A stretch of DNA of 63,791 nucleotides, the filler included, from Rhizaria sp. SCN 62-66 (Eukaryota): NCBI GenBank assembly GCA_001724265.1. It is 5 parts of 5 records of this genome, joined end to end, with 100 filler letters (N's around TTAATTAATTAA, not from the genome) between each part and the next. Parts side by side here need not be neighbours in the genome. Positions count along the whole stretch, not along the records: positions 49,562 to 63,791 come from MEDY01000664.1; 4 more parts are not named here. One strand, written 5' to 3'. The notes under the pieces are model-generated. The model made no database searches and was not told the DNA's origin. It was given only the letters and a program-made list of their open reading frames with translations. A program made the position numbers and the translations under genes. Positions 2,804-63,791 of the stretch are shown in pieces. How positions within the stretch are numbered: position 1 is the first letter of the stretch; the number at the start of each line of letters is the position of its first letter.

Positions 2804-4274
2804 TCAAAAAGAAACGGTCGTATGGACAAGCTGCTCTGCTTCGCCTTTGGCGACGTCGCCCAAAATGCTCACCAACAGCTCGTGCAGTTGCATGGCTTCG
2901 TCCCGTGCACTGGCGAGCGCCTGCTCGCTCTGGATCAGCGTCGGCCAGGAAAATGTTGCGGGGCTCCGCGCCCTGGGCCCGCACCGCGGGGTCCGCGCCC
3001 GTGTCGCCGGTCTCGACCATTGTGCGCACGACCATGAGCACGAGCGTGAGCAGCCGGCCCAGCGGCCTATGGGGCGGCGGCCCCGGCAGCGCAGCCACAG
3101 CGGCCAGCGTCGCTGCGCAGTAGGTCACCGCGCCGGAGCCGAGCAGCACGAGTGCCATGGCGGGCGTGCCGCCGTCGTCGGGCGGCGCACTTTTCAGTGC
3201 GTTCCACATCACCCACATCAGCTCGCTCGCGATCGGCCACCGGTTGGACTCGGCGTCGCCGGGTGGCGGTGCGGGCACGCGCAGAATGAGCGTCTGGACC
3301 GCGTTGGATGCAAGCACGCGCGACACCATCGCGGCGTCCGCGGCCAGCAGGTTCGACAGCAACCACGACAGCTACATCATTGCTTCGGTGTCCGTGGGTC
3401 CCAGAGAGCGTGCAAAGCGCTGCAGGTGCGCCAGCGCGGGCGGGGTAAACGCACGGTCGGGCTCGCCGTGAAAGAGCGAGGCAACAATGCCGGCAATGCG
3501 CAGCGCAGGCGTCCGCAACTCGCGGCTCACGTGCAACTGGGCAAGGATACGCAAAAAGATGTCGTCGTCGTCCACGAACAGGTACTCAAAGCGCACCCCT
3601 ACGCTCTCTTTGCGGAACACAAACGACAGGGACCACAACACGTCTTTCAGAGCGTCAGTCAAACGCGCGGCGGGAAAGCGGCGTAGCGCGAAGAAGAGTT
3701 GCGGCAAGGCCGTCACAGTGACTCTGAACGGGAGCGGTGGCGTGACCCTGAGGAAATTTGATACTGTCCACGAGAGAACATTGTGCAAAGCGACCCGAAT
3801 TTGGACTGTTCCCCCGTACACATCCGCCATATAGCGGCACACGTGCGCAAAGACTCCGCGCTCAATGAGCGAGTCAACAGCCTCGCGGCCCTCGCCAGCA
3901 ATGTTGCCCAGCGTCCAAAGCGCGTTTTCGACGATGTCCGTGGGTTGGTCAAGGTAGAGCACGCAGCAAAGCTTCTCAGGAACACCGCGTAAAAGCATCA
4001 CGCGGCAGCCTTCAGATGTCGCAGCCAAGTTCTTAAAAACCCGAAGCGTCTCATGCGTGCGCTGAGGCTCGTCAGCGTCGGCACAATACTCCAGCGACCT
4101 TAAAAACCAGTCAAGCACGCCGTGCTCGAGACACTCCGTCGCGAAAGTCTTCAGATCGTAGTTCTAGGTAGCGCTCTGCCTCCTCAGACTACGGAGCCCG
4201 TCGAGTGACGTTGTTACTGACATCAGGTCGGCGAGTGCCTCATGAAACGAGAATGGATCATACGGGACAGACAT
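2804..4274 (-). CDS. Importin-alpha-like armadillo-repeat protein with two in-frame TAG codons (4164-4166, 3372-3374) and a frameshift near 2941; may be a pseudogene
   Basis: Importin-alpha ARM motifs ENALWTLGNIAGE, SWTVSNF, DVLWSLSF and SWLLSNL. One frame runs from ATG 4274 through both TAGs to about 2941. A plausible C-terminus (TLIQSEQALASARDEAMQLHELLVSILG) follows in another frame and ends at TGA 2804-2806. A basic IBB-like stretch (IRKLRRRVASRRSDEL) lies upstream at about 4410-4470. Confidence 0.7.
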
Positions 4275-5519: not shown

Positions 5520-5607
5520 GGCCACCACGGCCGTGACCGCCATGGTGGGCTGCGCCGCACTGTTATTGCACACATACGTGCGGCCGCTGCGGGCGGCGAC
5601 AGCGCGG
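5520..5607 (+). repeat. Dispersed degenerate repeat, copy 2
   Basis: ggccaccacggccgtgaccgc...ctgcgccgcactg...gcggccgctgcgggc, similar to 2375..2462. Confidence 0.6.
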
Positions 5608-7634: not shown

Positions 7635-7734
7635 NNNNNNNNNNNNNNNNNNNNNNNNNNNNNNNNNNNNNNNNNNNNTTAATTAATTAANNNNNNNNNN
7701 NNNNNNNNNNNNNNNNNNNNNNNNNNNNNNNNNN
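7635..7734. other. Artificial assembly spacer (44 N + TTAATTAATTAA + 44 N)
   Basis: The same 100-nt construct occurs four times, and the 12-mer places stops in all six frames. Confidence 0.97.
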
Positions 7735-8380
7735 CACAGACCGAGCTTGCTATCGTCGTCAACGCCGCCGCTCAGCGCGGGCGGCACGGGCGCGACCGGG
7801 ACTAACGTCTGGAGCACGCCCGCGGCCAGAATGCGCGCCACCATTGTGGGGCCATCAACCATCATGTTCGACAGCAGCCATAGCAGCGTCTGGATTGTAT
7901 CGGCATCGCGGGGTCCCAGTGCCGCAGCCAGCCAGCGCAGATGCGCCAGCGTGGGTGCCGTGAAGACCTGCGTGGACATGCCGGTGTTCAAAGCGGCAAT
8001 CTTGCCGAAGAAACTCAGTGCGTGCGCACGCCGCTGGGCGTTGTCGTGCAACTGCTCAAACACGCGGTCGAAGACGCTGGCGTCCCCACAGTCGCGATCA
8101 AGCAGTACGTTGTTGCCATCAGATGACCCCATAAAGTTTTGAGAACCTAGAATGTCACCTAGCTCCGTTCGGCCTCATCCAAGTCCGACGAGTAGGCCAA
8201 GGACCAGAGTTGTCACTCGAAAACGCCGTCCTCCAGAAATGCCGCAAGGAGATCTGACAAATCGTCGTGACCCTCAGTAAGTTCCTTCAGCTGTTGAACC
8301 CCCTCGAGGGATGTTGCGGGCGACATCAAGTTCGCAATCACCTTGCGAAACGCGACTTCTTCAAAGGGTCCCGCATGCAT
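7735..8380 (-). pseudogene. Importin-alpha-like ARM paralogue, pseudogenised, with its 3' end lost in the gap
   Basis: The N-terminus (PFEEVAFRKVIANLMSPATSLEG...LEDGVFE) and later part (FTAPTLAHLRWLAAALGPRDADTIQTLLWLLSN) align with the 2804..4274 gene. There is a TGA at 8213-8215 where the paralogue has Trp, and a frameshifting internal deletion of over 100 codons near 8135. Confidence 0.75.
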
Positions 8381-14463: not shown

Positions 14464-14563
14464 NNNNNNNNNNNNNNNNNNNNNNNNNNNNNNNNNNNNN
14501 NNNNNNNTTAATTAATTAANNNNNNNNNNNNNNNNNNNNNNNNNNNNNNNNNNNNNNNNNNNN
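14464..14563. other. Artificial assembly spacer
   Basis: N44-TTAATTAATTAA-N44. Confidence 0.97.
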
Positions 14564-15047
14564 GGGCGCGCAGCAAGGCGAAGCGGTTGTCACTTGCGGC
14601 TGCGACTCGCTCGATCTGGAGAGCGATAGCCTGCTCTGGGGTCTCGAGGGGTGCGCTGGGGGTGTAAGGAGGCGGAAGACCGTCAAGTGGATCGCCTAGA
14701 GTGGTTGCAAGCGCCCGCCAGAGGCTCGGCGGCAAGTTTGCGGGGTTCTTGAGCAAGAGATTGCGTATCGTGACATTATGCGTCAGGCGGCTAACGAAGG
14801 CCATGTAAGAGTAGACGCGCGGCAACGAGTTGAGGTTGAATGGAAAGACAGTATGGAGCGGAGAAGCCGGGAAGTACGCCTCTGGGGGATACGCTGGAGA
14901 GCTGCTGTCAAGAGCGGAGTAGGCGTGTGAGACAACTTCTTCGTCAGCGTAGACGGAGGCGGCGCATGACAGAGGCGGTGTCATTAGACCGAGAAGGAGC
15001 GCTATCAGGGCAAGCAGCGTGCCCATGGCGCCATCGGCCAAGCGCAT
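14564..15047 (-). CDS. N-terminal fragment of a secretory-pathway protein (signal peptide or anchor); possibly the 5' end of the Stealth gene across the gap
   Basis: Hydrophobic MGTLLALIALLLGLMTPPLSCAA. The frame is open into the gap, on the same strand as and upstream of the 5'-truncated Stealth gene. Confidence 0.55.
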
Positions 15048-16009
15048 TGCGTTGATATATAAGACAATACGATCTTGGAAGCCTGGTATCCGCTGAGCCG
15101 GACGTTGTTGCGTTGCGTAGGATGACGGACGTGAGTGATTTCAAAGTTATGGCAGCAGGACTTCGTGAAAATGAGACCTTAAAAGTGCTAAACACAACAG
15201 AAAAAAGGCGATAAAATAACATGATACAGTATCTTAGTTAGTTCGATGGGTTTCTATTCAGTATATCGCATTGAAAACACGATAAAGTGGAGTAAATGTT
15301 ATGAGGATGGCAAGTTGTGACCGTGGAGTGGGGGGTGTTCTGGAAACGGCTTTCACCAGGTGACACAGGCTAAATAACATATCAAAACAGTATGATATCG
15401 TTTCAACGCAAGCAAAAAACTCATATACAATATAGAAATTCACGTTTGGAACTTCAATGATTCATACGACTCGATATCAAAAACACGCGGTTCGCTGAGG
15501 TCTCCTTCGTGGCATTTTTCAGCAAGCTTTAGCGTCACCATACGTCCATCGAGAGGATATAGCAAAAGTTGTACAGATAAGAGTCGCAGAGAACTTTCTA
15601 TTTTGAAATTGTACTTCGAGTTACCCTCCAAATAAGCGAGCATACTGACCTAAAAAGCCACCAGGTCGACAGCTTGACCGGTAGCAGACAGTCTTCGCCT
15701 GCTCACGGTCCCTCCGAGTCACCAGCTAGCTCAAGCGAGGCGATTTGTGATGCAAGATATGCGACATAAAGTTCATTCCCGGAGTTAGCGGTGGAATCAA
15801 GGAGTTTATATTTGTTTAATTACGTTAATTCCAGCATAGACCGTGTTTAGAACTACCATCTAAATACTTTAGCCGCAGCGCAGGAAGCCACCCGGCGCCC
15901 CCGATCGCAACTCCGCGCAGCGCACACAACCTCGACCGCTTCTTGGACCTCACGCACACGCGCTTCACACTCAAGCTCGCCGCCGCCACCGCTGCGAACA
16001 CCGGGGCCA

Positions 16010-16193
16010 TACCCCATCGAGAAGGTCTGGGAGATCGTCAAGACTCAGGTTTCCCGCATGGCGGTCAACTCTCGATAATACGGTGCATCAGTGTCTCGCG
16101 AACTATCCCCTGGAGATAATCGAGAAACTTGTGATTGGTCACGATAAAGTGATGAAGAAGGTTAAGAAAAAAATATATGTGCCAATTAAGTAA
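16010..16193 (+). mobile_element. Relic of a Tc1/mariner-IS630 (DDE) transposase C-terminus
   Basis: YPIEKVWEIVKTQVSR matches the (SPDL)NPIExxWxxxK motif. After a frameshift, NYPLEIIEKLVIGHDKVMKKV resembles the Tc1 C-terminal helices. Not present in the ORF track. Confidence 0.6.
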
Positions 16194-16375
16194 TAAATAA
16201 TAATATGACAGTGATATTAAAATATTACTTCTTAAAAATGTATTTTGGTATCTCGTTTAATGATAAAGTGCTCACTCACTGTTACACTGACTGTGTCTCC
16301 AAAAACATACTAATAGTAGTACGTTGTAATATGTGATGCAGAACCCACAACTCTCTTGAATAAGAAAGGATTCCT

Positions 16376-19300
16376 TCAGTACTCCCTGAAGATGCGCCCG
16401 CCGCCGCCACGAGCGCCGGTGAGACTGGCCAGCGTGGCTTCACTTGTCTCCTCTGCGCCCTCCGCGCCAGTACCAGCACCAGCACCGGTACCGGCACGAG
16501 TGGCCGCGCTCGTGGGGGCGGCGACGCCGGGGCGGGACTGGGAGCCGCGCAAGGCGGTGGCTTCGAAGACGGCCATCTCGTTCAGGTCGTAGGCGCCCGT
16601 GGGACCTTGAAGCTCGCGGATCTCGAGCAGAAGCATGCGCTGGTCTTCAGGCCTCGAGTAGATGAGCGGCTTCTCCACGATGGCGGCGCGCTCCTGGTAG
16701 TCGAGCTCGGACTTGAGCATCACCTCGTACTCGTAGCCCTGGTCGACCAGAAAGCGCTGGCGCTTGGTCGCGTACTTGACCTCGCTCGTGTCGGTCGAAA
16801 TGAGCGAGTAAAAGTACGCGTCGATCGTGCCCGACTTCTTAGACTTCGGGCGTAAAATGCGGCCTGTGAGGCGGAGGAAAAAACAAGAAAGCAAGGGGAT
16901 GGAGTTAGAAGAAAACTGATGATGATGTGATTTGTGAAAAACGTCAGACTGGACAGTTCAACACACACTTGGACAAACACGAGACTTTGTTGAACAATAC
17001 AATGCCAAATTTTAAAGAACAGCAAAACAGCAGAAGCGTTATGCGTACCGAGGCGCTGCGCCTCCTGCCTACGCGAGCCGAAGTGCGCGGAGAGCTGGAT
17101 GATGACGTTGGTGTCGGGCAGGTCGATCGCCGACCTTGGAGATGAAGATGGTGTTAAGCCCGTTGTTGGAGGAGAACTCGCGGAAGATCTCGACGCGCTC
17201 CTGGTCGGGCACGGAGCCGTCAATGAAGGGCCGCTTGAGCCGGTTCGCCAGCAGCTGCAGCGCAACGATTGACTCGCAGAAGATCATGATCTTGTCGCCG
17301 CGACGCTCGTGCGCGCGCATGAGGACCTCCATGGCCATCACCTTCTCCGGGTTCAGCGTCATGAGCAGCAGCTTCTTGTGCGTGTCGGCACCAATGTACT
17401 CGCGAAAGAAGAGCGGCGACATGGGGCACCACACCTCGCGGCACATCACCGTCGCGATGAAGCCCTGCGCGCTGAGGTCTTTCCAGTTGGCCTCGTAGAG
17501 CTTCGGGCCCAGCATGAAGTACAAGTCCTCGATCTTGCTGTCTTCACGTACAAGCGTGGCCGTGAGCCCAAGCTTGCAGCGCGAGTGCGTCACGCGCACG
17601 CACTTGGAGAACTTGTCCGCGGGCGCAACGTGGACCTCATCCAGCAGCACTCCTCCTGCGTGATCATGTCCATCACGGCCTTGGCGGCGTCGGAACGCTT
17701 CTGCTCGAAGGCTATCATCGAGTAGGTCGTGATCACCACCTTGGCGCCCGCGGGCACGGGGTTCTTGTTGAAGCGCGTAAAGGTGCACACGCACTCGTCG
17801 GGCAGATTCGTCCACAGCTTCACCTGGCGCCGCCACTGCTCGACCGCGACGGCCGTGGAACAAAAGATGAGCGTGGAGCGCGCGACGGTGGCCATGGCCG
17901 TGATGCCGACCTTACCAGCGCCGCAGGGCAGCACGATGATGCCCGACCGCGCGCGCCCGTTGCCGAACATCTTGGACAGCGCCTTCTCCTGATACTCGCG
18001 GATCTGCGCGCTGGGCCGCAGCTCCAGCGGTAGCTTGACCGCCGTGCCCGCCGCCGCCTCGGCGCGGAAGTCGTACTCCTCGAGCATGGGGAAGCCCAGG
18101 TCGTTGGAGAGTTTGCGCACCGTCTCGACCTGCGCGGGGTCCACCTCAAATGCAAACACAAACTCGGCGGCGCCCGCGGCCGCGGCGGCGCTCGCGCGCA
18201 CGCGCCGGCTCTTCTTGACGCTTCTACTACCCGCATCAGTCGCGGTGTCATCGTCGTCGGCCTTGGTCTTGCTGAGGGAGATGCTGGTGTCCTCGTCTTC
18301 TTTGAGCATGTTCCCTCGCAAGCGCGCGCGCTTCTGCGGCTGGCCGGCATCGGCCACGCCCGTCTCAGTCTTGACCTTGACGGGCTTAGCCGCCGCCACC
18401 TCGTTGTCATCGTCGTCATCATCGTCGTCGTCGTCGTCGTCGTCGATGACGCGGCGTGCGCGACGGGCCTTCTCCGCGTCGGCCTTGACCTTAGCTTTGG
18501 CCCTGGCAAACATGTCGTCGTCGTCGTCCTCGCTGTAGCGCGGCTGTCGATGCGCTTATTGACGCGCTTGCTGTCCTCCCTGTCACCGCCCTTCGTCGCA
18601 CTGGAGCCACTGGCGTTGCCGTCGTCCTTGGCGTCAAGCTCGCCGGTGCCCTGGAGGAAGATCTCCATGTCGGCCGCGTCGAGCCGCGTGACGAGGAAGC
18701 CCGTCTCGTCATCTACGGCCATGCGCGCGGCGGCCGCGGCCTCGGCCTCGGCGTCGCCGGCGGCCGCGGCCAGGATCGACGAGCGCTTCGAGTAGCTCCA
18801 GTCCGTCTCCTCGGTCTCCGCTGTGGCCGTGCCGGCGGCGCCCTTCTTGGGCTTGGCGTACGCGGCCAGTGACCGGTTGTCCACCCGCGCGGCGGCGATG
18901 TCCGGCGAGGCCAGCAGCTGCTTCAGCACTTCGGGGTCCAGCGCCTCGACGTAGTAGCGCCGGTTCTTCAGCACGAGCTTCACCTTGCCGCAGCGCTCCG
19001 TATAGCGCGTAATAAAGCGCACAACCTAGGGGTCGACCTCGGTCTTGGAAAGCTTGCGCAGGCCCTGGAGAATGTCCTCGGTGTCGAGCCCCAGCGAGGC
19101 GGCGGCGTAGAGTGAGTACTGCGTGATGACGTACTCGTGCACGTACTGCGGCCGCGTCACAGGATCCGAGATCGCGATCATAAAGTCGCACGCCTGCTTG
19201 TACACCGGCGACCAGGACTCGAGGAACACGTGCCGGTTGGGACACACCCAGAGCGGGCGCCGCTCGTGGCTCGGGCGTAGCGGGAGACGGCCGAAGTTGG

Positions 19301-19382
19301 ACTTGAACAGCGCGTCCATTGCGGCCGTGCGCGCCGCGGCGTCTGTCACCACCGTGGAAGGGTCAAGCGCGTCGTCGGACAT
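16376..19382 (-). CDS. XPB: TFIIH DNA helicase/translocase XPB (ERCC3/Ssl2). Intron 16864..17048, in-frame TAG at 19026-19028, four short deletions
   Basis: Motifs [94 protein letters not shown] and [11 protein letters not shown]. Phase-1 GT-AG intron. Stop is TGA. Confidence 0.95.
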
Positions 19383-20630
19383 AGCGAAGGAGCGAACAGG
19401 AGACCGCGTGGGCGAGGCGAGGTTTGACTGTGTGCTTGTGTGTGAATAAAAGTTGTGTGTTGGCTTGTTGTCGAATGCTGGCGGAGTTTTGATCTACAAA
19501 GAAAGAAAATGAGGAAATTACGCAAAGAAAAAGAAGTATAGAATATAAAAGTACGTTTCAATGGTAATACGACGTGTCGTAGCGTTATTGTGGCATATTG
19601 TAACGAGTTATGAACTACATTGGATAAGGTCGTGGTTGTGGTGTCCCGAGACCGAAGATGAGGCTTTGAAATTGAGCCACGCTCACAACAAAGATATGCT
19701 TTCCAAGAGTTGCTAAAATAAGATATAAAAGAAAAGTACAATTAATTCCAGGATCCTTGCGTATAAGGGTAATCTATGATCACAATCACGCGGTGCAGCT
19801 TTGTGTTCTCAATGGCTCTCTGGATCGGCATAGTCACGCAAGATGTACGTTTGTGGTGGCTGGTATTTTTTCACTAGACAAGCTTGATCTTGACGTGAAT
19901 CAGGTCAACGATAAGGTTGTTCAAATATGTAACATAATCGCTATACTTATATACGTTATAGCTTTATTAGACATATCATTCTTGTCAATTCTGACTACTG
20001 TTCATATAGCAGTCATATTTTCATAGATGATTGCTGGATCAACGGTAGCCGTTGCGGCGTGTCAATGCTAACATGTCATTGCGTTACAAGAACACATCTA
20101 ATCACTCAATTTCTATTATAACTCGTAGGGGATTATTACAAACTTAAGATGTAAACATATGGCTTGCTATCTGTACACTATCTACTTAGGACTACCGTGA
20201 AGTTTGTCCCCGCTAGAAGACTCACGTCATCGCGAAGTTGGCGTCAACGCGTCCACAGCAAACCAGAACAAGATCTGAGGGCTTCTGGTGGTAGCAAACA
20301 GACTAGAGCAGAAAGCACATACGTAGGGTTCATAGTACACGGTATCAGTAAAGCTTATGGAGCTCAGCTGGTGGTCAGGAGCAGTAGCTTGCGGGAGGAG
20401 ACAGCGCCAAGTGGGAGAAGCGGCTGATGGTCGAGACAAGCCATCATACAGACCCAATCCGAGCTAGCTAGCAATGCCCAGACTAAACGCACAGTTCATC
20501 CATGAGGCGAACACAAATCCACCTTCAGGGACTGTTACCGTCGACATTCTGCATAAAATTCCAGTCGACAGCTTTTGCCGGTCGCGATTTAAAGGTGGCG
20601 TTTCTTGTGTATACACACTTCGTTTTCCTG

Positions 20631-20730
20631 NNNNNNNNNNNNNNNNNNNNNNNNNNNNNNNNNNNNNNNNNNNNTTAATTAATTAANNNNNNNNNNNNNN
20701 NNNNNNNNNNNNNNNNNNNNNNNNNNNNNN
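20631..20730. other. Artificial assembly spacer
   Basis: N44-TTAATTAATTAA-N44. Confidence 0.97.
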
Positions 20731-49461: not shown

Positions 49462-49561
49462 NNNNNNNNNNNNNNNNNNNNNNNNNNNNNNNNNNNNNNN
49501 NNNNNTTAATTAATTAANNNNNNNNNNNNNNNNNNNNNNNNNNNNNNNNNNNNNNNNNNNN
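49462..49561. other. Artificial assembly spacer
   Basis: N44-TTAATTAATTAA-N44. Confidence 0.97.
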
Positions 49562-52500
49562 CGTCCGCGCCGTGGCCCGCGCCGCCCGCGGCCGCAGCGG
49601 CGGCGGCGGACACCGCAGCCGGGTCGCGGGGACGCGCGCGGCCCGCGGCAGCGGCCTCGGCGCGGCCCACTGCGGCGGATCTGGCGGCCAGCGCGCCCGC
49701 CTCGGCGGCCAGCAGCGCCGCCGCGGTCACGGCCGCGGGGGTTGCGTCCGCGGCGGCGGTGGCAGCCCTGTGCGCGGCCGCGGCGACGGCGGCCAGCTCG
49801 GGGGCGCCGTCGGCGGCCTGTTGCGACAGACCGAGCGAAAGCAACGCCTGCTAATGCAACGCGCGCGCCGGGAGCCCGCGCACCCAGGCGCCCGCCACGG
49901 TCACCGCGCCCGCGCACTGCGGCAGCGCGGGCTGCGCGCGGCCGTGCGCGGCGGCGGCGGCCGCGGCGGCAAGCGCGGGCGGAAACAGCCCGGTGCACGT
50001 GAGGCCCGCGGTGTGGGGCAGCACGGCCATGGCCACAACCGGTGCGCCGTCGGCCGCGGCGTCCACGCCGGCCGCGGCGGCCGCGGCGGCGTCGGCGGAT
50101 GACGCCGAGAGCACAGGCAGTAGCGGGACCCAGGAAGTCAACCCGCCCGCCACGGCGGCGACGGCGACGGCGGCGGCGGCGGAGCCCGCGGGGGCGGACA
50201 GCAGCGCGCACTCGGCGGCGTTAGCGCGCGTCAGGGCCAGCTCGAGCACCTGCTGGGCCTGGATTGCGCCGACAAGCCCGCTCGCACCTGCATTGAACCC
50301 ACCTGCAGAGCCAGAGCTGTGGCCGTGCGCAGCAGGAGCAGCGGAGCCGCCGCCACAGAGGGCACCGGCAGCCGTCACGGTGCCGAAACGGCTCCTGCTG
50401 CCGCTGTTGGGGTGAGCGTTGGAGGTGCGGTAGTAAGACTCTGCGACGGCGGCCGCTGCGGCCGCGGCCGCGGTGTCGGCCGTCGCCGTTGCTGTTGCCA
50501 TCGTGATGATGTCCGTGACGGGGCTCCAGCCGGGCAGCATCAGCGCCGCGCCAGTCACACTGCCCGTTGTGGCCGACGCAGACAGCGGCGCGGCGGCGGC
50601 GCCGCTGCTGCTGAGCGCGAGGCCCGTCGCGGACACCGAGGCCGGCGTGGCCGTGGTCGCGCTGAGGCGGCCGGCGAGGATGCGGCAGACATGCGCCGCC
50701 ACTGCGTGGTCGTACACGCTCTCTAGCACGTCGCCCAGCCGAGCCAGCGCTGCGCGCGCCACGGCCACGTGCACGGCGGCCGCCGCGGGCAGCGCGCCCG
50801 CCAGCGCCAGCCGCGCCGGGTCCGCCAGCGGCGCTGCGGCCAGCAGAGTCGCGAGGTCGGCGCCGCGGCCTGCACTCGCGGCGGTGTTGAGCGTGGGGTG
50901 CGCGCTGGCGACAAGCAGCGCGGCGACCGCGGGCCACGCGCGCACCAGAGCCGGCGCGGCCTTGTGCGCCAGCGCGTTGTAGGCCGTCACGTGCGCGGCC
51001 AGCGGCGACGCGCACGAGGCCTTGAAGGCGTTGAGTTTGGCCGCGTGCGCGCTCACGGCCGCGAACAGCGGCTCCAGAGCGGCGTCGCGCGCGGCGACCA
51101 CTGCGGCCACGACGCCATCGCTGCCGTCGGCGGCCGCGGAGGCGGAGGCGGAGTGCGCGGCGAAGGCGGCGTACTGTGCCTGTGACAGCGCGAGGGTGAT
51201 TGAGAGCGCGGAGCCGGCGGGCACGTGCAGCGGCGCGGCCGCGGCGGCCAGCGCCTGCGCCAGCAGCCGCGGACATGGCGCGGCCAGCGCGACCGCCGCG
51301 ACGGGTTGCTGTGAGCGCAGCAGCAGCGCGACGGCGCCGGCGCGGTTGCCCGCCGCCAGCAGCGTCTGCGCGCGCAGCAGCGCCGACGCCGACTCGACCG
51401 CAGCGGCAGCAGGGCCGGCGTTGCTGGCGGTCGCAGGGGCAGCGGGCGCGGGCGCGGGCACCGGGGCGGGGGCGGCGGCGAGCAGAGCGCGCGCGGCGGC
51501 GGCGAGGTTCGCACTGACTGGCTGCGGCACCGGCAGAGCAAAGGAAAAGGCGTCGCAGGCCGACTTACTGTTCATGTTTCTGGTCTCGTCGTTGGTGTCG
51601 ACCGCGGTGGGCTCGAGCGCCGCGATGAGAGTCGCCAAGGGACGGCAGCTCTGCTCACAGTCGCCTCCCGAGGACGGAGACGAGGCGCCGACGGCAGCAC
51701 CAGCAGCAGCGTTGCCTGCATTGTTGTTGGCGTTGGCGTTGATCTCAGCGGCGGCGCTGCCCTTAAGCGCGGAGACCGAGGCCTTGACACCCGAGACAAG
51801 CTTGCTGAGGCCCAGAGAGCCCGAGCTTTTAAGACGGCTCGCCAGCGACCCGGTGTTGCTGTTGTTGCTGCCGGAGCCAGCGGGCGCAGCCGCCGTCGCG
51901 TCCGCGCTGCCGCCGTCCGCGGCGCCCTTTCTAGCAGTGCTGCTTGTAAACAGTGCGGCGTCGCCGTTCGCGACCGCGGCGTCGAGCAGCAGCGCGGCCG
52001 CAGCGGCAACGGCACCGCTCGTCTCCACACCGTCAGTATTCGCGCTCGCATGAGCAGCAGCAGCAGCAGCAGCAGCAGCGGTGGCGGTGGCGGCAGCACC
52101 GGTGTGGTTCCGCGCGTAGTCGAGCAGCAGCGCGCAGACCGAGCGCTCGAACAGCGACAGCTGCTCATCGCCCGCACCCGCGCCGCTGGCGGGCACGTCC
52201 CCGTTGGCATTCGCCCCAGTGGCGGCGGCGGCGGCCGCGTCGGTGGCGGCGGTGGCAGCGCGCGTCACCTCGCCGATGACGCGCCAGAGTAACGCCAGCT
52301 CCTGCTCCTGCCCCGCGGTCGCCTGCGCGGCCATGGTGCTCAGCGCGTTGGTGTTGCCGCCCGCAGCAGAAGTCGCGGCGGCGGCGCGCGCGGCCCACGC
52401 GTTGCCTCGCGCGCCATGGGCGGCGGCGCGGCCGGCGATAAAGCGGGCGAGAGCAGCCGCCGCGGCGGGGGCGGCCGAGTGCGCCAGCGCGTGCGGCGTG

Positions 52501-53858
52501 CCCGTCAGAGGGCCAGGAAAGGCCGATAGGGAGAGCACAGGCAGCGATGACGATGACGTTGCATTCGCACTGGCATTGGCCGTAGAACTAGCGTTGGCGA
52601 GCGAGAGCAGAGGAGCGAGCTTGGGGAAGACTGAACAGCCAGAGCGAGTGTGGGCCGCAGCGGCAGACTGGGCAGCAGAGTGACCGTGGGCGGCTGAGTG
52701 ACCGTGGGCGGCGGCGAGCGAGCCCGGGGCCGCGTTCGCGAGCACGAGTGCGCCCGAGGGGGCGAAGGTGGCGAAGACGCGGCCGCCGGCCTTGGGGCAG
52801 CGGGCCAGAGGCACCTGGGCCGGTGCATTCAGAGCAGGGGCGGCAACAGCAGCATGGGCGGCGGCAGGCATGGCGTTGTGCACAGGCGCAGTGGCGGTGG
52901 GCGCGGGGGCATAGACGGAGGCAGCAGCGGCGGCAGCGGCCGGCGGGGGCGCCATCTGAGCGGGGTAGGCGTTCATGCTGTCACTGGCAGCCGTATTGGG
53001 GCTGCCAAAGGCGACCGCGGGCTGCGGCGGCTGCGCTTGCGGCTCAGGCTGACACTGCGGCTGCGTCTGTTGCACTTGCAACTGAGGCTGTTGAGGCTGA
53101 GGCTGTTGCAGGGGAGCTGGAGGCTGTGACGGCTGCAGCGGTTGCAGAGGCTGCAGGGGCGGCAGTGGCGCCAGGCCCGGGAGCGGCGACAGAGACGCCA
53201 TTGCAGCGGCACTCGCAGCGGCCTCTGCAGCAACAGCAGGAGCAGCATGAGCAGGAGCATGAGCAGCAGTAATGTCTGAGGCTTGTTGGCCATAAGGGGC
53301 ACCGTATACACCGTAGGGGCCAGCGGCGCTGCTATCGCCAAGCGCGGACAGCACAGACGCAACGGGCTCCGGCACAGCGGCAGCAGCAGCAGGGACAGCG
53401 GCAGCCTCAGGGACAGCGGCGGCAGCAGCGTCGTAGTTGCTTCGCTGAGGAGGCATACCGTATCCCAGTCCGTAGTCGTCTCTTGCGCCCGAGAACGTGT
53501 CGAAGATGCCATTGGACTCTCTATGGGCGTCGAACTGGGTCTGGGTCGTGGTAGCAGCAGGCGCAGCGTGCGCAAAGGAAGCGGGCGCAGCCGGGGCAGA
53601 GGCAGGTGCACTGTAGTCCGCCACAGGAGAAGCTGGGGCGGCGGAGGCTGCGGCGGGCTGCGCTGCAGTGGGGGCAAACTGGGCCAAGTGCGGCGGCAGC
53701 GTTGCGGGGGCGTCAGAGTTAAACACGGGTCCGGCGTCGGAGAACATGGAGAAGGCCATGTTGTCCACCATAAGCGCAGATGAGGAAGCCGAGGCTGCTG
53801 CGGCGGCGGGGTCATCCGTCTGGTCTGCGGCGAACGCAGAGCCAAATGGGGATGACAT
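49562..53858 (-). CDS. SEC16: Sec16-like COPII/ER-exit-site scaffold, 3' partial, with in-frame TAG at 49851-49853
   Basis: Ordered motifs of the Sec16 central conserved domain: ATFAPSGALVL (FGFGGKL-like), SAFPGPL, LALLWRVI, QTLLAAGNRAGAV, RLGDVL...AAHVCRILAG, IQAQQVLELA, LLSLGLSQQA. Disordered P/Q-rich N-terminus. Confidence 0.7.
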
Positions 53859-54352
53859 CGCTACGCAGGAAAGATAAACGAAGTGAACGGAGATAGATTG
53901 TCAACGGGAGTAGTCAAAAGTTCGGTGATCAAGCTAATGAAGTTCGTTATATGTGCGAAATAGTCCCGGGAAGGGGGTTGGGTCGCATGGCTGAGGGAGG
54001 GCAGATATGGTCACAGCGAAACGGGCGAATACACATCGTCGTGCTTCGTTCTCAGAGAGTCCACTTCTAAAAAAGATAGAATTATACACAAAAAATCTCA
54101 AACACAAACAATAATGCTATTGCACGTTCACCATGCAGTTCTAAGGACAATGTGAGATCCCCCTCAAAGCCGACGTGCTATGCTTCACAGTCACTTTTTT
54201 CGGTCCTTACAGCCGCCGATTCGACAGCACGCGCTGTGACTTGAAAAACCACTTTCAAGTTCAATTCTACAACAACGTAAGCCTCAATCGAATTTCTGTC
54301 TATGTATTACTATAATTTACGCTATATAAATTCCCAATTCAGTCCATTTGGA

Positions 54353-57300
54353 TCAATCACGCTCCAAACTGCGCTTCACCTGCCCTTGCAGTTGCTGTCC
54401 TTGCTGCTCTTGGTGGCTCAGCTGCTGCTGGTTTTGCGCAGCCCTGGCTTCCATAACTCGCCACAGCCGGCGGTCCTCCCCGCGCCACTGCGCCCGCGCC
54501 AGTGCCGCCGCAACCGCAGCCGTCTCTGCCTCCGCCGCAGCAGCGGCCACAGCTTCAGCACCACTGTTTGCGTTGGCGACGCTCTGCGACGCCGCCGAGG
54601 CCGAGGATAGTGCCTTGCGCAAGTTAAGCCGCGCCCGCGCAAGACTAGCGGCGACCTCGCGCCCCTGCCTGCGGCGCTCGCGGCGCGCCGCTTTGAGCAC
54701 GGCCCGCCACATCGAGTCGCCGACCACCGCCGCGGCCAGCTCGATCACTGACACAGTCAACGCCGCATTCGCACTCGCGGTCACCGTCACCGCTGGAGCG
54801 GCAGCAGCAGACGTGGCCGCAGAAAAAGCGCTGCTGCCGCTGCCATCTTGCTGCTCTTGATGACTAAGTGCCTCGTGGCCAAGTACCCCGTCGAAGACGC
54901 CCTCCGCGAAGAGCTCTGCGACGCCGGTGCCCCATCCGGGCACGGGGGCCCACACGCTGGCTCCCGCGTCGCAGAGCGCGGCGGCTACGGCGCGCGCGCG
55001 CGCCGAGCCGCGCAGCACGGGGAAGACGAGGGGCGGCGAGCCGCAGGGGCAGGCACGTCCGGGGTCCGCGCCCCAGTGCAGCAGCAGCTGCACCAGGGGC
55101 AGCGGCAGGCCGTCGCGGACGCAGACCTGCAACGCGGTGCAGTTGGCAACGGGGCCGCCGCTGCCGGCAGCGGCGGCGGCGCAGTCGCCGAGGTTTGTTA
55201 CAGAGTCCGAGCCCAAGCCTGAGCCCGAGCCAGACTCGGCGTCATCGTCATCATCACCTACGCCGGCATTTTTGCTGTGATGGCCGAACTCGCCGCTGTC
55301 GTTGCTGTTTGTGGCAACCGCAAGCGCCGTGAGTGACTGCGCCAGCGCGTCCCTGAGCGCGCGCGTCCGCGCCTCGCCCGGCACCGCGGGCGCCACGGCG
55401 TCCACGGGCGCCCCGTGCGCCAGCAGCCCTGCCAGCACGGCCAGCGGGCCCTCCGCCGTCGCAACCGCCGTCCCCGTCGCAGTTGCGGTGTGGTTGAGGT
55501 CGGTGCTGTGTTCAGAGATGAGGGCGGCGGTGGCGCGCGCGGCGGCCTTCGCGGCGCGGGCGGCGCAGTTCGCGGCGGCGGCAGAGGCGGCAGAGGCGGC
55601 GAGGTCGGCGGCGTTCTCGGCGGCGTTGTTGCCAATGATGTGGGCGCGCGAAAGCAGAGCGAATGGCGGCGGCGAAGGTGAGAGTGTCGAGAGCGGGGAA
55701 GCTAAGTCGCCAAACAATGAAGGTAAGCCGCCACTGACAGGAAAGAGACGACTCGCACTGGATGGGCGCGCACTGAACACAGCGCTGTCATCACTTGCAT
55801 TCACACGCATACTCCCCAGCTTAGTTACGTTTCCAGACGCAGCCACAGCCTCAGTCGGAGCTGCTGTGGCAGCATTGCTGTTGTTCCGCTGCTGATCTTT
55901 GGCAGTGTCAATGAGAGCTCGCAAGTCATGCTCCAACTGGGGGTCAACACCGTCGGTACTGAGACGACGCGCGGCACTTACACCAGGGGTGCTTACATCA
56001 GAGGTACTTACATTAGCAACGGCTGCTTTAGCGGCGGCCCTGGCGGCAGCAGCTGCGCCCTCAGCCGCAGCCACGCTCGCAGCCCCCAACGCGTCCGCCG
56101 CGGATAAAGCGGCAGCGGCGGCACTGAGGGAGACGCTTTTGCCGCTCGCGTTGCTGCTGGTACGGGCGTAACAAGAGAGCTTTGAGCGCCACTTGATGTC
56201 GTAGTCGCCGCCACTCTCGCTGTCACTGTCAACATCACTCGCGCTGGTGCTAGAGTTAGAGTTCACACTGCTACCGTTGACACCGCCACCGACGTCGATC
56301 GTGATGCTGCCATCAGACTTTGCTGTTGCGTTGCCTTGCGTTGCTGCAGCTGCGTGTGCAGTTGAACTCGACGATGGTGGCGTGAATGCGTCGGCAAACT
56401 CAAGGATTTGACACCAAAACGCCTCCGTCAAAAACATCGTCATCAGCTTCTCATGCTGCATCTCGCTTTCACTCCTTTGCTGGTGTTGTTGCTGTTGCCG
56501 TTTGAGCGCATTCTCTTGAATATCCCACTCCCGGGCTCGCGCCAGCAACCCCACCTCGGTGCCGCCGTAACTGACCGTGGGCGCCCCGTACCCGTGCCCG
56601 ACTGTGGGCGCGAACGCGTAGCCGACCATGGCATCCCCCGTCAAACTGCCCGCGGGCAGCGCGCTCCTCTCCGTCACCGAGGAGCCGCCGGCGACCTTGC
56701 ACAGCCCCGCGGCTGTGGGCCGGCCCCCCGCGGCCACGAGCGCAGTGACGACCGCGGCGGGCCTGCCGAGCGCGAGGGCGACGTCCACGGGCCCCGTGCC
56801 CGCGAGCCACCCCGAGCTGTGCCCCACCGCCGAGGCGGGGTCCGCGCCCGCGCGCAGCAGCAGCGCGGCGGCGGCGGCGGCGGCGGGCCCGGGGTGGTGG
56901 AGCGCAACCCAAAGCGGGGACGCGCCGTCCGCATCGCGGTGGTTCGGGTCCGCGCCCTGGGACAGGAGGAAGCGCACAGCGGAAAGCGAGGAGGCGGGCA
57001 ACGGAGCCAGGGACGCGGGGTGACGCGAGGCGACAGATGCAGCTGTCAAACGAGAGCTCGAGCTCGAGCAGCTGGCGCGAGAGACAGAGGTAGAAGTTGC
57101 TGCAGTCCAGTCGATGGGAGGGGTGGCGAGGTCGGACTCGCGGAGCGCGCGTGCCGCTGCCAAGTTGCTGCGAGCTTGCTCCAGCGCTAACAGCGATGAT
57201 GACAATGACGACGACTGCATCTTCGCAGGAGTAGTCGTGTGCGAATGAGACAATGCTGCAGCAGCTGGCGCTTCTACTGCAGCTGCAGACGCTTCTTTGG

Positions 57301-59896
57301 CTTCCTCATTTGACACCAAACCAGCCCCAGTCTCGGTCTCAGCTTTCGCTCCCGCTTGAGCCACGGCGGCCGCAGCGGTGGCAACCGCGGCCTCAGCGGC
57401 TTCGATGGCGGCGGCGTGGTAGGCCGCGATCAGCGCCACGGCGCGCGCCGTCGGCCGCCGCTGCAGCACGTCGAGCAGGGTGGCGCCTGACGACGACTGT
57501 GAGAGCAGAGCCACGCGGGAGGCGCGCAGCGCGGACTGAGTTGAGAGCGGGTGTGGCGGTGCCTGCGACTGGAAGTGTGGCTGTACACTAGACTTGTTCA
57601 TGTGGGCTGACACAGCTTGGCTGGAGGTGTCTTTGTTTTGGGGAGATAAGTAGAAGCCGTTGCCCGCTCCACCATGCCCACAGTCATTCGAGTCCTCACC
57701 ACACTCTCTATCGCCGTCGACGTCGTCATCGTCGCGCATGCCGCTAGCGTCGCGCTCACGGTCAGTCGAGGCGTCCTGCTCACAGTCACTAGCGTCGAGT
57801 TGCGAAGTCGAGACCGGAAAATCGTAGCTGCTGTCAAGAGACAGCGAGCAAGGTGAACCCAGCGACTGAGAGACTGCCATCGACTGTGGGCTCAGCAGAG
57901 TGCGACTCGTCTCGCCCGCAGCAGCAGCAGCAGCAGCAGCTGTGGCAGCGGCAGTTGCGCTGACAGGGGACTGTCGGGCGCGCTGCCGTTGCCGCAGAGG
58001 CAGAGCCTGCGCCTGCGCCTGCAACTGCTCATGCTGTTGCTGCTGCTTTAGGTGCTGCTGCTTCTGCTTTTCTGCCTTCTCTTGCGCCTTGCGCTGCCGC
58101 TCTTGCTGCTGCAACAGCTGGTGCTGCAGCTGCTCTTGCTGCTCGACCGTCATGAAGCTCACGAGAGGCTTGCTCGACTGCGGAACACGTGCCTGGTCCT
58201 GTCGCGGGTATCCGTGACTCGCGCCGGCACGCGTGCTGCTAAAAGTGGCACTTACACTCGCGTCAAGAGCGTCTAAGTAGCCCATCATGTCTAAGGGGCT
58301 AGCACCATCGTCAGTAGCGCCAGAGCCAGAAACACCAGTCGCGTTGTTGTTGTTGTTGTAGTCGCTGCTATCTGAGGCTGAGTTCAGCACGGAGCATAAG
58401 GCAGATGTAGAGGCAGGAGCAGAGGCCGACGGTAGCGGCGACGACAGAAACAGGTCAAACAAACTCTGATCAGAGTCCCCGACCGCGCTCGCGCTGCCAC
58501 AGATACTGGCACTTGCGTTCGCATTTGAGGCTGTGTGAGAGCCACTCGTGAAACTCGCACTTGGCAAGCTCGTGTCTTTGTCACTCACGGCGCCCGTGCT
58601 TGTATCGCTATCGTCGGTAGTGCCATATGATGCCATTACCGAAGCAAAGTGCGAGTGGACATTGTTGTTGTTCAAGTTGAGTGCAATGTCAATCTTGCGA
58701 GTCCCGTCTTCATCGGGCGCAGCCAAACTTTCCTCCACGTCCAGGCCCCACAGTGATGCCAGAGATAGAGGCTGCGCCTGCGAGTCGATCTCAGTCTCAG
58801 ATTGCGACTGAGACCGAGACTACGACTTTGAAGCTGAAGCCAAGCCACTTTTCGCAGAGGTCGCGCTGCCTTGCTTGTCCGTCACAGATGACGCTGACAA
58901 TGATGTGATTCCAGAGACCAGCAGTGACATGTCGCCGTCGGGCTGGTGTTGGCTGTGGCGCCGCGTTGGCCGCGATTGTTGTGTTGCGCTAGGACTTCCG
59001 CCCCCGATCACAGTCGCAGCGTCACCCATAGGCACTGACAAAGCAGCTGTTGCTGCTGTTGATGCCGATGCTGCAGCTGGTGAAGCTGCAGCAGTTAATG
59101 ATGACGCCATGCGTTGAGACCGCAACAGCAGTGTACTGAGCACGGTCGACGCTGACGATTGCGACAGCGACTGGGACTGGGACTGGGGCAACGATTGTGA
59201 CGCTGTCTCGGACTGAGACAACTGCGTCTGTGCCGTTGACGCCGGGTCGGGGTCACGTTTGGCGCAAGCGCCGGTACTCGCCACACCGGCAACAACAGCA
59301 ACAGTAGCACGGGGAGTCGACTTGACAGACTGTGACACAGGCAGCGACTGCAGCGATGACGGCGCAGACGACGACGATGACGACGAGGACGACGTTGTCG
59401 CAAGCAATGACAGCGATGACGGAGCCACGCGTGCCCTTGCAGCTTCAGCACGAGCGCCGTCGGCCTTAGTGACAGCAGCAACACCTGCAGCTGGAGCGGC
59501 AATGGAGCTGCCACTGCCGCTGCTGCTGCGGCGCCCAGCGCTAAGGGCACGGACAGTGGCGGTGCTGCTGCTGTTGTAGCTGCCACTTGCAGCGCCGAAG
59601 AGCACTGATATCGCACTGGCACTGGCACTAGCGCTGCTGTTGAGAGTGTTTGTGTTTGCGTAGTTGCTAGTGGTGTTCGACACAGTGCGCACTGAAGACC
59701 CAACAGCAGGTTGCGCAATCGTTGCAGCCGGACTCTTCACAAGGACATGCGCTGCAGCGCTGCGTTGTGCTAAAAGTGGCGCATCTGCTGCTGTAGAGGC
59801 TGCGGTGGACGCAATGGGCGAAGAAGCGGCGGCTGCTGGCGAGGCGGTAGAGGTCGGCGCCGAGCCTGGGCGGAACGCCTGGCGCCGAATCGACAT
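54353..59896 (-). CDS. Ankyrin-repeat protein with Ser/Gln/Ala-rich N-terminus (1847 aa if TAG 58820-58822 is read through)
   Basis: VRFLLSQGADPNHRDADGASPLWVAL, LLLRAGADP and TALQVCVRDGLPLPLVQLLLHWGADP. ORFs 58820..59896 and 54353..58738 are in the same frame, separated only by one TAG. Stop is TGA. Confidence 0.8.
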
Positions 59897-60489
59897 CGAT
59901 ACAAGTGCAACCGCCGTCGATCAGCAAGGCAACTGCGCACTATCAGGGTTTTAAGTAAACTTGATTGATCTGAATTTGAGTTGATGAAATGAGAGAGTCA
60001 GAAGGGGAAGTGGGACGAAAGGCGGGAAGATGAGGCGAGGACTCTCAACGACTCAGGGCCGCTAGGATGAAAATCAACGGGAGTTGAATTAAAATCATAA
60101 AATCCAAGTACTAATTCATACGAAATACTCTAAAATGCCACTGGCGTCTAATTTGACGGTCGCTACATGGTGTTCTGCACTGTTTCCTCAATGCCGTGAT
60201 TGGCGCGATCTTCTTTACACCGCGGCCACCACAAGTTCGCACTCTGACGCTAATAGTCGAGATACGCCATGAAATCAACAATCTGGTCTGTATTCCGTTA
60301 CTATACAGCGCTGCCTTATGCAGCTCAATAATCTAAATAAACTGACGCACAGTGAGACTCTCGCGATCTCATATGCTTTGACATTATAAAACAAGTGCAG
60401 CTCAGCGAAGGCAAAGCCAGGCTGCCATGACACCACCCCATTCACCCAGGCTTTGAGTGGGCGGTGCGCCAAGGTCACCAAGAGCGCGC

Positions 60490-61259
60490 TTAGAGCTCCG
60501 ACTTGAGCCCGGCGGCGGCGGTGGCGGCACCCGCGGAGCCGAACATGGCCTCGTAGTACACGAGCTTGATGATGAGAAGAGCGGCGGTTGCGCCGACCAT
60601 GCGAGTCATGAGCAGCGCGAAGCGCCCGGCGCGGGTCAGCGTGCGGCGCTGCCAGTCAACGAGGGCCTCCATGGCAACCATGACGAAGAGCGGGACCGAT
60701 GTGAGCACGATGAAGAGCGCGATGGTGGAGGACACGGCGCCGACGATGAGCTTGTTGTCGACGAGCAGGGCCAGCGCGCACCACGTCAGGCACCACACGA
60801 TGCACAACGACGAGGAGAGACCAGACAGGACGCACGCCCAGACGGGGATGGGGCCCATCAGCTCGCGCTCCAGGGCGTCGAGGTCCAGGTCCCTGTTGGG
60901 GCCGAACGCGCAGCAGCGTGAACGTGAGGCGGAGATGAGAGGGTGGCATGTTGTGTGAGTGGTAGTACGAGGCGTTAGAAGAAGCGGATAAAGCGTCTAG
61001 TAACTGTTTCAAGAGTAAAATTAGTCATTGACAGTGTAGCACTACCAATTCATATCTGTTAGACATCACGAAAATATGAATCTTAGCAATATAATGCTGT
61101 TTTAGAGTGAGTCCACACGTACTCGTCTTCGGCGTTGAGAGTGACACCCTTCTTAGCAGGAGGCGCAACATCCTTCTTTTTGTTGTTGCCGCCATTGCCG
61201 CCGTTGCTGTTGGCGGAGGAGCGCTGAGAGCCGCTGGTCTGCTTGCTCACTTCAGACAT
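60490..61259 (-). CDS. Small multi-pass membrane protein (about 179 aa), exons 61259-61123 and 60892-60490
   Basis: Phase-2 intron GA|GTACGT...CAACAG|G joins MSEVSKQ...NAEDE to DLDLDALERELMGP. About three hydrophobic helices. Ends KSEL followed by TAA. Confidence 0.75.
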
Positions 61260-61646
61260 GTCGAGTGTGTTGCTGCGAGGCGGCGTTATGGTGAAGTTGA
61301 AGTGTGGCAAGGACAGGGGTCAACAGGGGGAAACGGAAGCGGGGCGTAATTGAGAGGTATAGTCTAATCAACACAAAATAGAAAGGGATAGTATAATAAA
61401 ACACGTATAGATTTCTAAAACGCATGCTAAATTCGGTTTGACGATGAGACCATGGAAAGCTTGCCTCTTTACGAATGTCGGATGTTCGCCACCGACTACG
61501 TCAGCTTCTAGCCGGACCTAAAAAAATGGGCGAAGCATGCAAGCATGCGACTGGCTGGTCGAATCGATCGACGGGCGGGCGTGGGTAACTGATTTGAAAC
61601 GTCGGTAGCGGAGGTGTTTCGTCGTCAAATCGTCCACGCTTCAACT

Positions 61647-62759
61647 ATGTACTTTGTTGCTGCCGCTGTTCTTGCCGCTGGTATTAGCGCATACTTCTTC
61701 GCGAAGAAGGCCGGACTTATCGGTGGTCCCCGCGCCATCCAGCTCACGCCCGAATACGTCGACTACACTCTCATCGAGAAGGTACGCTTACTCTTTTTAT
61801 GGCCCCATATACTTGTTTATATACGAATTCCGCGACATTTCTTCATGTGCCTGCTTGCTTTATTCCCGCCTAGCTGCTCTTCTTCATTGTCAAAACCCGT
61901 ATTTCCTTAACTCCGCACACGCCAGCCACACACGCCAGTTCCTCACTCATACGCTTACTGTTGACCCAAATCGTTCTATCTTGCTTCGCAACCTTTGCAG
62001 CGTGACGTGATCTCGCCCGACGTGGGCCTGCACACGATGCTGTTCCGCTTCCAGCTGCCCGAGGGCGCATACCTGGCGCTGCCCATCGGCCAGCACCTCT
62101 CGATCCGCGCCCCGACCCCCGGCCAGGACACCGCGTTCGTGTCGCGCCAGTACACGCCCACCACCTCCGTCGATACCGTGGGCTACTTCGACCTCGTGAT
62201 CAAGATCTACCCCACCGGCGTGATGGGCAACTACCTCAAGAACCTCCCCACGGGCTCCAAGGTCGGCGTCCGCGGCCCCAGTGGGTCGCTCCAGTACAAG
62301 GGCAGCGGCGAGTTCGTGATCCGCCGCAAGAACGAGGCCACGGGCACCGCCGCGCCTGTCACTTACAGCAACATGTCCGTCGGCATGATCGCCGGCGGCT
62401 CGGGCGTCACGCCCATGCTGCAGCTGATCCGCTACATCTCGGCCCGCGCGTCGGACCCCACGAAGTTGTCGCTGGTGCTGGGCAACCAGACCGAGGGCGA
62501 CATCATGTGCCGCGAGGAGCTCGAGGCCGCCGCTGAGCGCAACCCTAACTTCAAGCTCCACTTCATGGTCGACCGGTCGAACAACACGGCCTGGCGCTAC
62601 GGCGTCGGCTACATCACCGCGGACGTCATCAAGGCGCAGCTGCCCCCGCCCGGCAAGAACACGCTCATCCTCATGTGCGGCCCCCCGCCGATGCTCACGG
62701 CGATGAAGAAGAACCTCGCCGCGCTCGGCTACACCGACGACATGATCTTCTGCTACTAA
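61647..62759 (+). CDS. CBR1: NADH-cytochrome b5 reductase, exons 61647-61781 and 62001-62759
   Basis: N-terminal membrane anchor, LPIGQHL, RQYTP, FDLVIKIYPTGVMG, RGPSG, GMIAGGSGVTPMLQ and LMCGPPPM. Phase-0 GT-AG intron. Stop is TAA. Confidence 0.95.
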
Positions 62760-63694
62760 GCGCAGAGACGCACGGCTTTCAGTCCCTGAAAACAAGCGCA
62801 AATGGAAGTAAACACAGCTGTACACAGACAGCTTTGCTTTTTACATTGGACTTGGTTTTGTTTGAGAGTTTTGAGTTGTATGTTTGGACGAGAACGATTA
62901 TGATAACTGATGATATGTTAATTTTGATATTACGATACAAAGTCTATTTTTACATGTACGAATGTCGAGTTACGCTTAGCTTCACAGCGATGCCGATGAA
63001 GGCGCATGCACCAAGCTGTTAGCTGCGTGAACTTAGCATGGTTGCGCAATTACTTGGCTTGGATGTGTATTGTCCATATACGCAGCCGATTCATAGATGC
63101 ATTTAACTTCGGGCGCCAACACATACTCATGACGCAGTAGAAAGTATTCGCAGTCGTTCTTAGAACGTAACCCTCGAATCAACAGTTGCATTAGTCACAA
63201 AACTTGCATTTCATATAAGTTTGGAGAACGAGAGTGTGTTTGATTGTGTAAACCCAACGGGGGGTGTATTTGGAATTGTGTTGTCAAAAATAAAAAGTTG
63301 TCATCATTTGTTGCATGTCATCGTCTTGTCGTCTCATCACACACACATCATCGCAGCCAAAAACTCCGCTGCAGGCAGGACAGGCAGGGCGCCCCCAAAC
63401 GAGGGACGCGACCGCTGCCCCCACGCACGGCGCGGGAGGAATAAGATTATAGATTATATCTGCGCTTTCATAAGGCAGCACTCACTCGGGACGAGGGAAG
63501 TGTCAAGTGGCACCTCACTAAGAGCAGCAGGAATGCGGCTAAAGCATCACTCAAGCGCGCACAAGAAGCAGAAGGGGAAAAAAGAAAAACCAGTAACTAA
63601 AAAAAGTGATTTCAAAAAGACAATGTCAGACCAACAAAAGAGGCAAGACAGATCTTTGTGATATGTTTTTTGTTTAGCAAGTTAAACTTCAAAC

Positions 63695-63791
63695 TTAGTT
63701 CTTGCGGGCAGCGATCTCGGCAGCAAGCTTGGCAGCCTTCTCCTCGACCTCCTTGATGTTGCCGACCATGTAGAAGGCCTGCTCAGGGAGG
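63695..63791 (-). CDS. ATP2: F1 ATP synthase beta subunit, C-terminal end (continues beyond the window)
   Basis: LPEQAFYMVGNIKEVEEKAAKLAAEIAARKN followed by TAA. Confidence 0.92.
   Translation of the reverse strand, partial: LPEQAFYMVGNIKEVEEKAAKLAAEIAARKN

Follow-up and report, generated by a model that had tools for sequence, protein, structure and literature searches.

The in-frame TAG in the Ser-rich part of a minus-strand gene near one end of the window probably lies inside one 1847-codon gene rather than at a gene end, as judged from the sequence. The probability that TAG is a sense codon here, with glutamate a likelier meaning than glutamine, is put at roughly 0.55. The original prediction had likewise described two open reading frames (ORFs) fused through this codon but had assigned glutamine to it.

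The window, i.e., the whole stretch of DNA that was analyzed (63,791 nucleotides), consists of five separate pieces, A to E, joined by spacers of the form N44-TTAATTAATTAA-N44. The features discussed below are collected in Table 1. Coding DNA in the window has a GC content of 0.6 to 0.85, the intergenic DNA is AT-rich, and at least one gene, the XPB homologue of piece C, contains an AT-rich GT..AG intron. The source organism is a GC-rich, intron-bearing eukaryote and no evident ciliate. ORFs running over the spacers, e.g., 20683-49509, are artefacts at their ends.

Table 1. Positions of the pieces, genes, and in-frame TAG codons along the window
Feature	Position	Strand	Remarks
Piece A	1-7634		
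Importin-alpha-like ARM gene	2804-4274	-	Piece A; two in-frame TAGs
In-frame TAG, ARM codon 301	3372..3374	-	Homologue column E5 K1
In-frame TAG, ARM codon 37	4164..4166	-	Homologue column E2 T1
Spacer	7635-7734		
Piece B	7735-14463		
Diverged second copy, C-terminal half of ARM gene	7740-8174	-	Edge of piece B
GlcNAc-1-phosphotransferase-like (Stealth) gene	10343-14463	-	LNR/Notch domain 13813-14463; Stealth CR4 10343-12340
Spacer	14464-14563		
Piece C	14564-20630		
XPB/ERCC3 homologue	16379-19382	-	One in-frame TAG, one AT-rich intron
In-frame TAG, XPB/ERCC3 homologue	19026..19028	-	Inside Helicase_C_3 domain
Spacer	20631-20730		
Piece D	20731-49461		
Single open frame, 9576 codons	20731-49461	+	Piece D; open at both ends
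Spacer	49462-49561		
Piece E	49562-63791		
Ala-rich gene	49563-53858	-	Starts MSSPFGS, runs off piece E, without family match
In-frame TAG, Ala-rich gene	49851..49853	-	Piece E; neighbor of the 1847-codon gene
TGA terminator of 1847-codon gene	54353..54355	-	Following 300 nt, GC 0.39
Downstream part, 1488 codons	54356..58819	-	Same frame as upstream ORF
Second region matched by ankyrin-repeat proteins, aa ~1570-1671	54884..55189	-	923-1024 of 1200-aa query
Ankyrin-repeat match, aa ~969-1020	56837..56992	-	Pfam and ankyrin-protein matches
Ser-X run SASKS(TAG)SRSQSQS, aa 354-366	58799..58837	-	7 Ser; TAG in X position
In-frame TAG, codon 359/1847	58820..58822	-	Plus strand reads CTA
Upstream ORF, 358 codons from ATG (59896)	58823..59896	-	Low-complexity, Ser/Ala-rich
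Cytochrome-b5 reductase	61593-62759	+	FAD/NAD-binding exon intact, ends in TAA

On the minus strand, the codons around the TAG read TCA AAG TCG TAG TCT CGG TCT CAG TCG CAA TCT GAG (SKS*SRSQSQSE), exactly as had been reported. The ORF upstream of the TAG, the TAG itself, and the downstream part add up to one unit (358 + 1 + 1488 = 1847 codons) in a single frame, and this frame scores best in all 37 sliding windows (100 codons each) before and after the TAG, with the coding score based on codon usage trained on the other genes of the window. The 366 open codons on the upstream side stayed free of stops in none of 20,000 shuffles. The claim that the gene contains no other lesion also holds: there is no further stop and no frame change, leaving the TAG as the sole lesion. 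The Ser-X run around the TAG is the longest alternate-Ser run of the protein and is reached by 21 of 5,000 shuffled proteins, which bears out the placement of the TAG inside a coding repeat, and the similar run said to lie upstream is present as SQSQS at aa 239-247. Taken together, the single frame, the unbroken coding signal, the Ser-X run, and the lack of a plausible intron indicate that the two ORFs are, or once were, one coding sequence.

Other parts of the original prediction are less robust. The downstream part indeed lacks an ATG at its start, the earliest one being its codon 62 (at 58636), with a GTG and a TTG 28 and 32 codons past the TAG, respectively; the "annotated start" mentioned in this connection does not exist, as the window carries no annotation. 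The periodicity of the repeat was held to predict Gln. The X positions around the TAG are occupied by A, K, TAG, R, Q, and Q, so that Gln makes up only two of the five known positions, and CAG, GAG, and AAG are each one base away from TAG; the periodicity therefore does not single out Gln. A duplicate of the TAG region was not found elsewhere in the window, and an exact 40-nt scan of the sequence beside the TAG against bacterial and archaeal genome contigs gave no match.

The protein had been named an ankyrin protein, and this label is partly justified. PF00023 (Ank) reaches 24.2 bits against a cutoff of 21.1 as the one match above its gathering score, while PF12796 and PF13637 score under their cutoffs in the 1847-codon protein. 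Generic ankyrin-repeat proteins match two short regions, with a best E value of 2.7e-30 (HMMER). These repeat matches are common to the 1847-codon protein and the ankyrin-repeat proteins (PF00023 and its clan), whereas well above 90% of the 1847-codon protein is low-complexity sequence without a family. The two ankyrin regions stand, but the name is thin and weak for the protein as a whole; a protein-binding repeat is the likely functional element. For the N-terminal part, the protein atlas provides a model with a mean pLDDT of 0.35, which fits a predicted disorder of this part.

No orthologue was returned at an E value of ≤1e-3 when the fused protein (X at the TAG) was compared by word index with 5.8 billion proteins, within a length range of 1015 to 3233 aa. 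When the C-terminal 1200 aa served as the query of an exhaustive HMMER search, only P0012 and generic ankyrin-repeat proteins were returned. P0012, a fragment from the same species, is the sole true relative found. Because the 1847-codon gene is without an orthologue, the residue cannot be read from the TAG at 58820-58822. This codon, in low-complexity sequence with no orthologue aligned over it, is hence not the best site for determining the amino acid, as had been proposed; the TAGs of the XPB and ARM genes are informative instead.

Public records contain the gene in two parts. The 358-aa upstream ORF is identical, letter for letter, to a record of the protein atlas, and P0012, a record of 632 aa, represents essentially the same sequence as the window at about 56840-58726. 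The initial M of P0012 corresponds to the TTG located 32 codons past the TAG, and the record differs in one residue, with V in place of D. Look-ups in the protein atlas yielded no relatives. Public gene calls under the standard or bacterial code break the gene at the TAG, giving the 358-aa and 632-aa records. These records may derive from the same sample or the same assembly as the window. The last residues of P0012 (EIGRAHV) diverge from the window. This tail resembles a sequencing adapter in translation and would then point to a contig of its own, built from raw short reads.

Including that of the 1847-codon gene, the window contains five in-frame TAGs, which are spread over four genes on three of the five pieces when TAG is read as X. 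In about 14500 codons of the same frames, in-frame TAA and TGA are both absent. Five terminators are well defined: TGA ends the 1847-codon gene, the XPB homologue, the Stealth gene, and the tail of the ARM gene, and TAA ends the cytochrome-b5 reductase. TAG serves as a terminator at none of these five gene ends, a small sample. Under the standard code, the chance of finding no TAG among five terminators is estimated at about 0.1 to 0.3. The sequences that follow the two groups of codons differ in composition, with a GC content of the next 300 nt of 0.33 to 0.46 after the five terminators (0.42 beyond the TAA of the reductase) compared to 0.54 to 0.84 after the five TAGs. The TAG at 58820-58822 has the value of 0.54 and no AT-rich spacer behind it. 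Coding-like sequence with a GC3 of 0.60 to 0.93 follows every TAG, and the bases directly 3' of the five TAGs (A, C, G, T, and C) reveal no common context.

Piece E carries two of these codons in two long frames of 1446 and 1847 codons (3293 in total) that are free of indels. The TAG of the Ala-rich neighbor gene is followed by 289 nt up to the end of the piece, with a GC content of 0.84 and a positive coding score in the same frame. A Pfam scan of 111 further ORFs yielded no additional conserved gene with a TAG. Piece D is taken up by a single ORF with 30% Ala, a GC3 of 0.85, two PHD fingers, and a weak PLU-1 match. This ORF has 302 codons for Glu and 167 for Gln, and TAG is absent from it; from the codon counts, the probability that all five TAGs lie outside piece D is about 0.01 if TAG use is uniform. 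Neither tRNA genes, Rfam families, nor a release factor (eRF1) gene were found within the window.

The residue is best approached through the TAGs inside conserved domains, which are those of the XPB and ARM genes, both of which also carry deletions. In the XPB/ERCC3 homologue, the Helicase_C_3 match spans the TAG with 105.8 bits (profile positions 1-122 of 125). The corresponding column of 10 homologues reads E4 R3 D1 A1 Q1, and the closest homologue (68% identical) has E. Both TAGs of the importin-alpha-like ARM gene fall inside a homologue alignment of 440 residues. When the three conserved TAG columns are pooled, 11 of the 19 residues are Glu and a single one is Gln, with Leu and Ser absent, a count that covers three sites only and that GAG-to-TAG lesions would reproduce. 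The closest homologue has Glu at all three of these TAG sites. With 11 of 19 residues as Glu compared to 1 as Gln, the proposal of glutamine is unsupported, and glutamate is the best candidate. The expectation of a glutamine code, in which UAG would stand opposite Gln, is contradicted by the same ratio (1/19). Likewise, the expectation of a UAR code, in which UAA would also be sense, is contradicted by the lack of in-frame TAA and by the TAA that terminates the reductase.

The deletions in these two genes deserve a closer description. The 'TL' of the Walker A motif GAGKT of XPB is missing through an in-frame loss of 6 nt (GAGK-VGI), and three frame-breaking deletions are located near 18556, 17650, and 17125, with changes of frame within QEE-WGL-VLLDEVH, within KVGD-NS-IDLPD, and at RIDQ. 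Of 297 positions without variation among three homologues, 246 are retained in XPB, and a single frameshifted stretch accounts for 24 of those lost. As far as can be read from the DNA, the damage of XPB is confined to deletions, with no general decay, and its conservation fits a gene in use. The intron of XPB (~180 nt, GT..AG, GC 0.40) coincides with an insertion that is also present in the homologue P0002. In the ARM gene, about 13 conserved residues are missing after RNIFLA, with a frame change near 2943; the true tail (LIQSE...TTVSF) lies in another frame and ends with the TGA at 2804-2806. The XPB and ARM genes may be recently dead copies (pseudogenes), or the assembly may drop short stretches. 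The diverged second ARM copy has Thr opposite the second TAG of the copy in piece A.

A decoding scheme may be proposed on this basis. TAG would be decoded as an amino acid, with TGA and TAA staying terminators, and the ribosome would read through the TAG at 58820-58822. The product would be a single long protein, rich in Ser and Ala and for the most part disordered, that contains two small patches of ankyrin repeats. Judging from the three TAGs elsewhere in the window, glutamate would be the best candidate for the inserted residue and glutamine a poor one. Such decoding would presumably require a tRNA whose anticodon is CUA, along with a changed release factor. The DNA itself shows that frame and coding signal continue across the TAG, that further in-frame TAGs exist, which codons serve as terminators, and which residues are aligned with TAG; from this we infer that the TAG is probably translated.

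Several readings that keep the standard code have to be weighed against this scheme. The TAG could end a 358-aa protein, with a second gene starting at the ATG, GTG, or TTG downstream. Public gene calls under the standard or bacterial code make the same split, but the two parts share one frame, the AT-rich spacer seen after all other gene ends is absent, the Ser-X repeat continues across the TAG, and the coding signal extends throughout the 61 codons ahead of the first ATG, all of which makes two genes very improbable. Removal of the TAG by an intron, which the original prediction had named as a refuting observation, would be consistent with an organism that has introns (that of XPB, ~180 nt). 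The coding signal is, however, unbroken across the TAG, and none of the 197 in-phase GT..AG intervals of 30 to 600 nt that were checked is a plausible intron: all have a GC content of at least 0.53, and the donors GTAAG, GTACG, GTGAG, and GTATG occur in 0 of the 197. This reading has the slimmest chance of those considered. Leaky termination, in which a 358-aa product would be accompanied by some 1847-aa protein made with a near-cognate tRNA, agrees with the open, coding-like frame past the TAG. Near-cognate tRNAs place Gln, Tyr, or Lys at a UAG that is read through, and the aligned Glu would be an unusual product of this process; in addition, the five TAGs have no common 3' context (A, C, G, T, C), and little functional protein would result if the essential domains of XPB depended on readthrough. 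Leaky termination is thus improbable, if slightly less so than two separate genes.

The weightiest objection is that, under a standard code, the TAG arose by nonsense mutation in a gene copy undergoing decay or entered the assembly as an erroneous base, so that what was once one 1847-codon gene now makes a fragment of at most 358 aa. Three of the five TAGs belong to XPB and ARM, which also have frame-breaking deletions, and the in-frame deletion in XPB takes out a Walker A residue. With the codon usage of this window, random single-base nonsense changes produce TAG in 58 to 66% of cases, so five of five would be TAG by chance with a probability of about 0.07 to 0.12. GAG is the commonest one-step neighbor of TAG, in line with the Glu columns. 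The GC-rich codon usage and the prevalence of GAG would thereby let lesions imitate the TAG-only pattern, and likewise the Glu columns, fairly well. The absence of TAG from the 9576-codon ORF of piece D and the existence of redundant copies, with at least one more copy in the ARM family (7740-8174), point in the same direction. Against lesions, piece E, which offers the cleanest test, has no indel in the 3293 codons of its two frames and undamaged cytochrome-b5 reductase domains, and yet has two TAGs; two adjacent pseudogenes with a single lesion each are possible, but this assumption is strained. Moreover, premature stops are TAG in five of five cases compared to none of five terminators, general decay is absent in XPB, and the TAG-delimited ORFs recur in public records, one of them with a residue difference. 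Damage or error is therefore possible but on the unlikely side, and a sense TAG, with glutamate as the preferred meaning, remains the favored reading.

Among the known nuclear codes, the closest are those in which UAG alone is sense and UAA is kept as a stop. According to the accessible parts of PMC11687900, these include an uncultured rhizarian (Leu) and Scotinosphaera (Ser), as well as Iotanema spirale, Protocruzia tuzeti, and some phyllopharyngean ciliates (Gln), with other phyllopharyngeans using Leu. The window resembles these codes in having TAG alone in frame, with TAA (one case) and TGA (four cases) ending genes. The aligned residues differ, being Glu in 11 of 19 cases with Leu 0, Ser 0, and Gln 1. 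A further difference is the organism, which is GC-rich with introns of the spliceosomal type and shows no evident ciliate affinity; translation of its TAG is proposed here. A second group reads UAA and UAG as Glu and comprises peritrich ciliates and Blastocrithidia nonstop, and Oligohymenophorea sp. PL0344 has UAG as Glu and UAA as Lys, as given in the accessible parts of PMC11687900, PMC12153298, and PMC10553269; the latter two agree in this regard for Blastocrithidia and one ciliate. In the accessible text of PMC11687900, UAG as Glu is known only alongside a reassigned UAA. Glutamate is also the best-supported meaning of TAG here, but in contrast to the codes of this group, TAA ends the cytochrome-b5 reductase and is never found in frame. 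In Blastocrithidia, UGA is also recoded and the genome is AT-rich.

The code in which UAR is Gln (NCBI table 6) is the commonest stop codon reassignment and is used by many ciliates, Ulvophyceae, Hexamita, Streblomastix, and Amoeboaphelidium protococcarum, as listed in the accessible parts of PMC11687900. It is the code that the original prediction had assumed; here, Gln accounts for 1 of 19 aligned residues, and TAA is a terminator. A code with UAG alone as glutamate and UAA and UGA kept as stops, in a GC-rich, intron-bearing, non-ciliate eukaryote, can be suggested only tentatively and is, on balance, doubtful. Full-text literature searches, whose coverage is incomplete, did not turn up any GC-rich eukaryote with a reassigned UAG, including UAG alone as Glu.

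If TAG is a sense codon, every standard-code gene call on this organism would be cut at its TAGs. Few nuclear codes reassign UAG while leaving UAA unchanged, and any addition to them is relevant to the uncoupling of UAA from UAG; the meaning of Glu for UAG, if true, would be a further code variant. If the TAGs are lesions, GC-rich codon usage would let nonsense damage mimic a reassignment of TAG, a reason for caution in code prediction screens.

Some minor observations concern the remaining parts of the window. A lone N is found at 8957, in a C-rich run (poly-Pro when read on the opposite strand) within AT-rich intergenic DNA. The GlcNAc-1-phosphotransferase-like (Stealth) gene contains long low-complexity inserts of Asp/Asn/Thr-Gly, and comparison of its ORF with solved structures gave only one short match. 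In the cytochrome-b5 reductase gene, an exon-1-like ORF that encodes a membrane anchor (MYFVAAAVLAAG...) precedes the FAD/NAD-binding exon, with a putative intron between them. The reductase itself is present in the protein atlas from residue 15.
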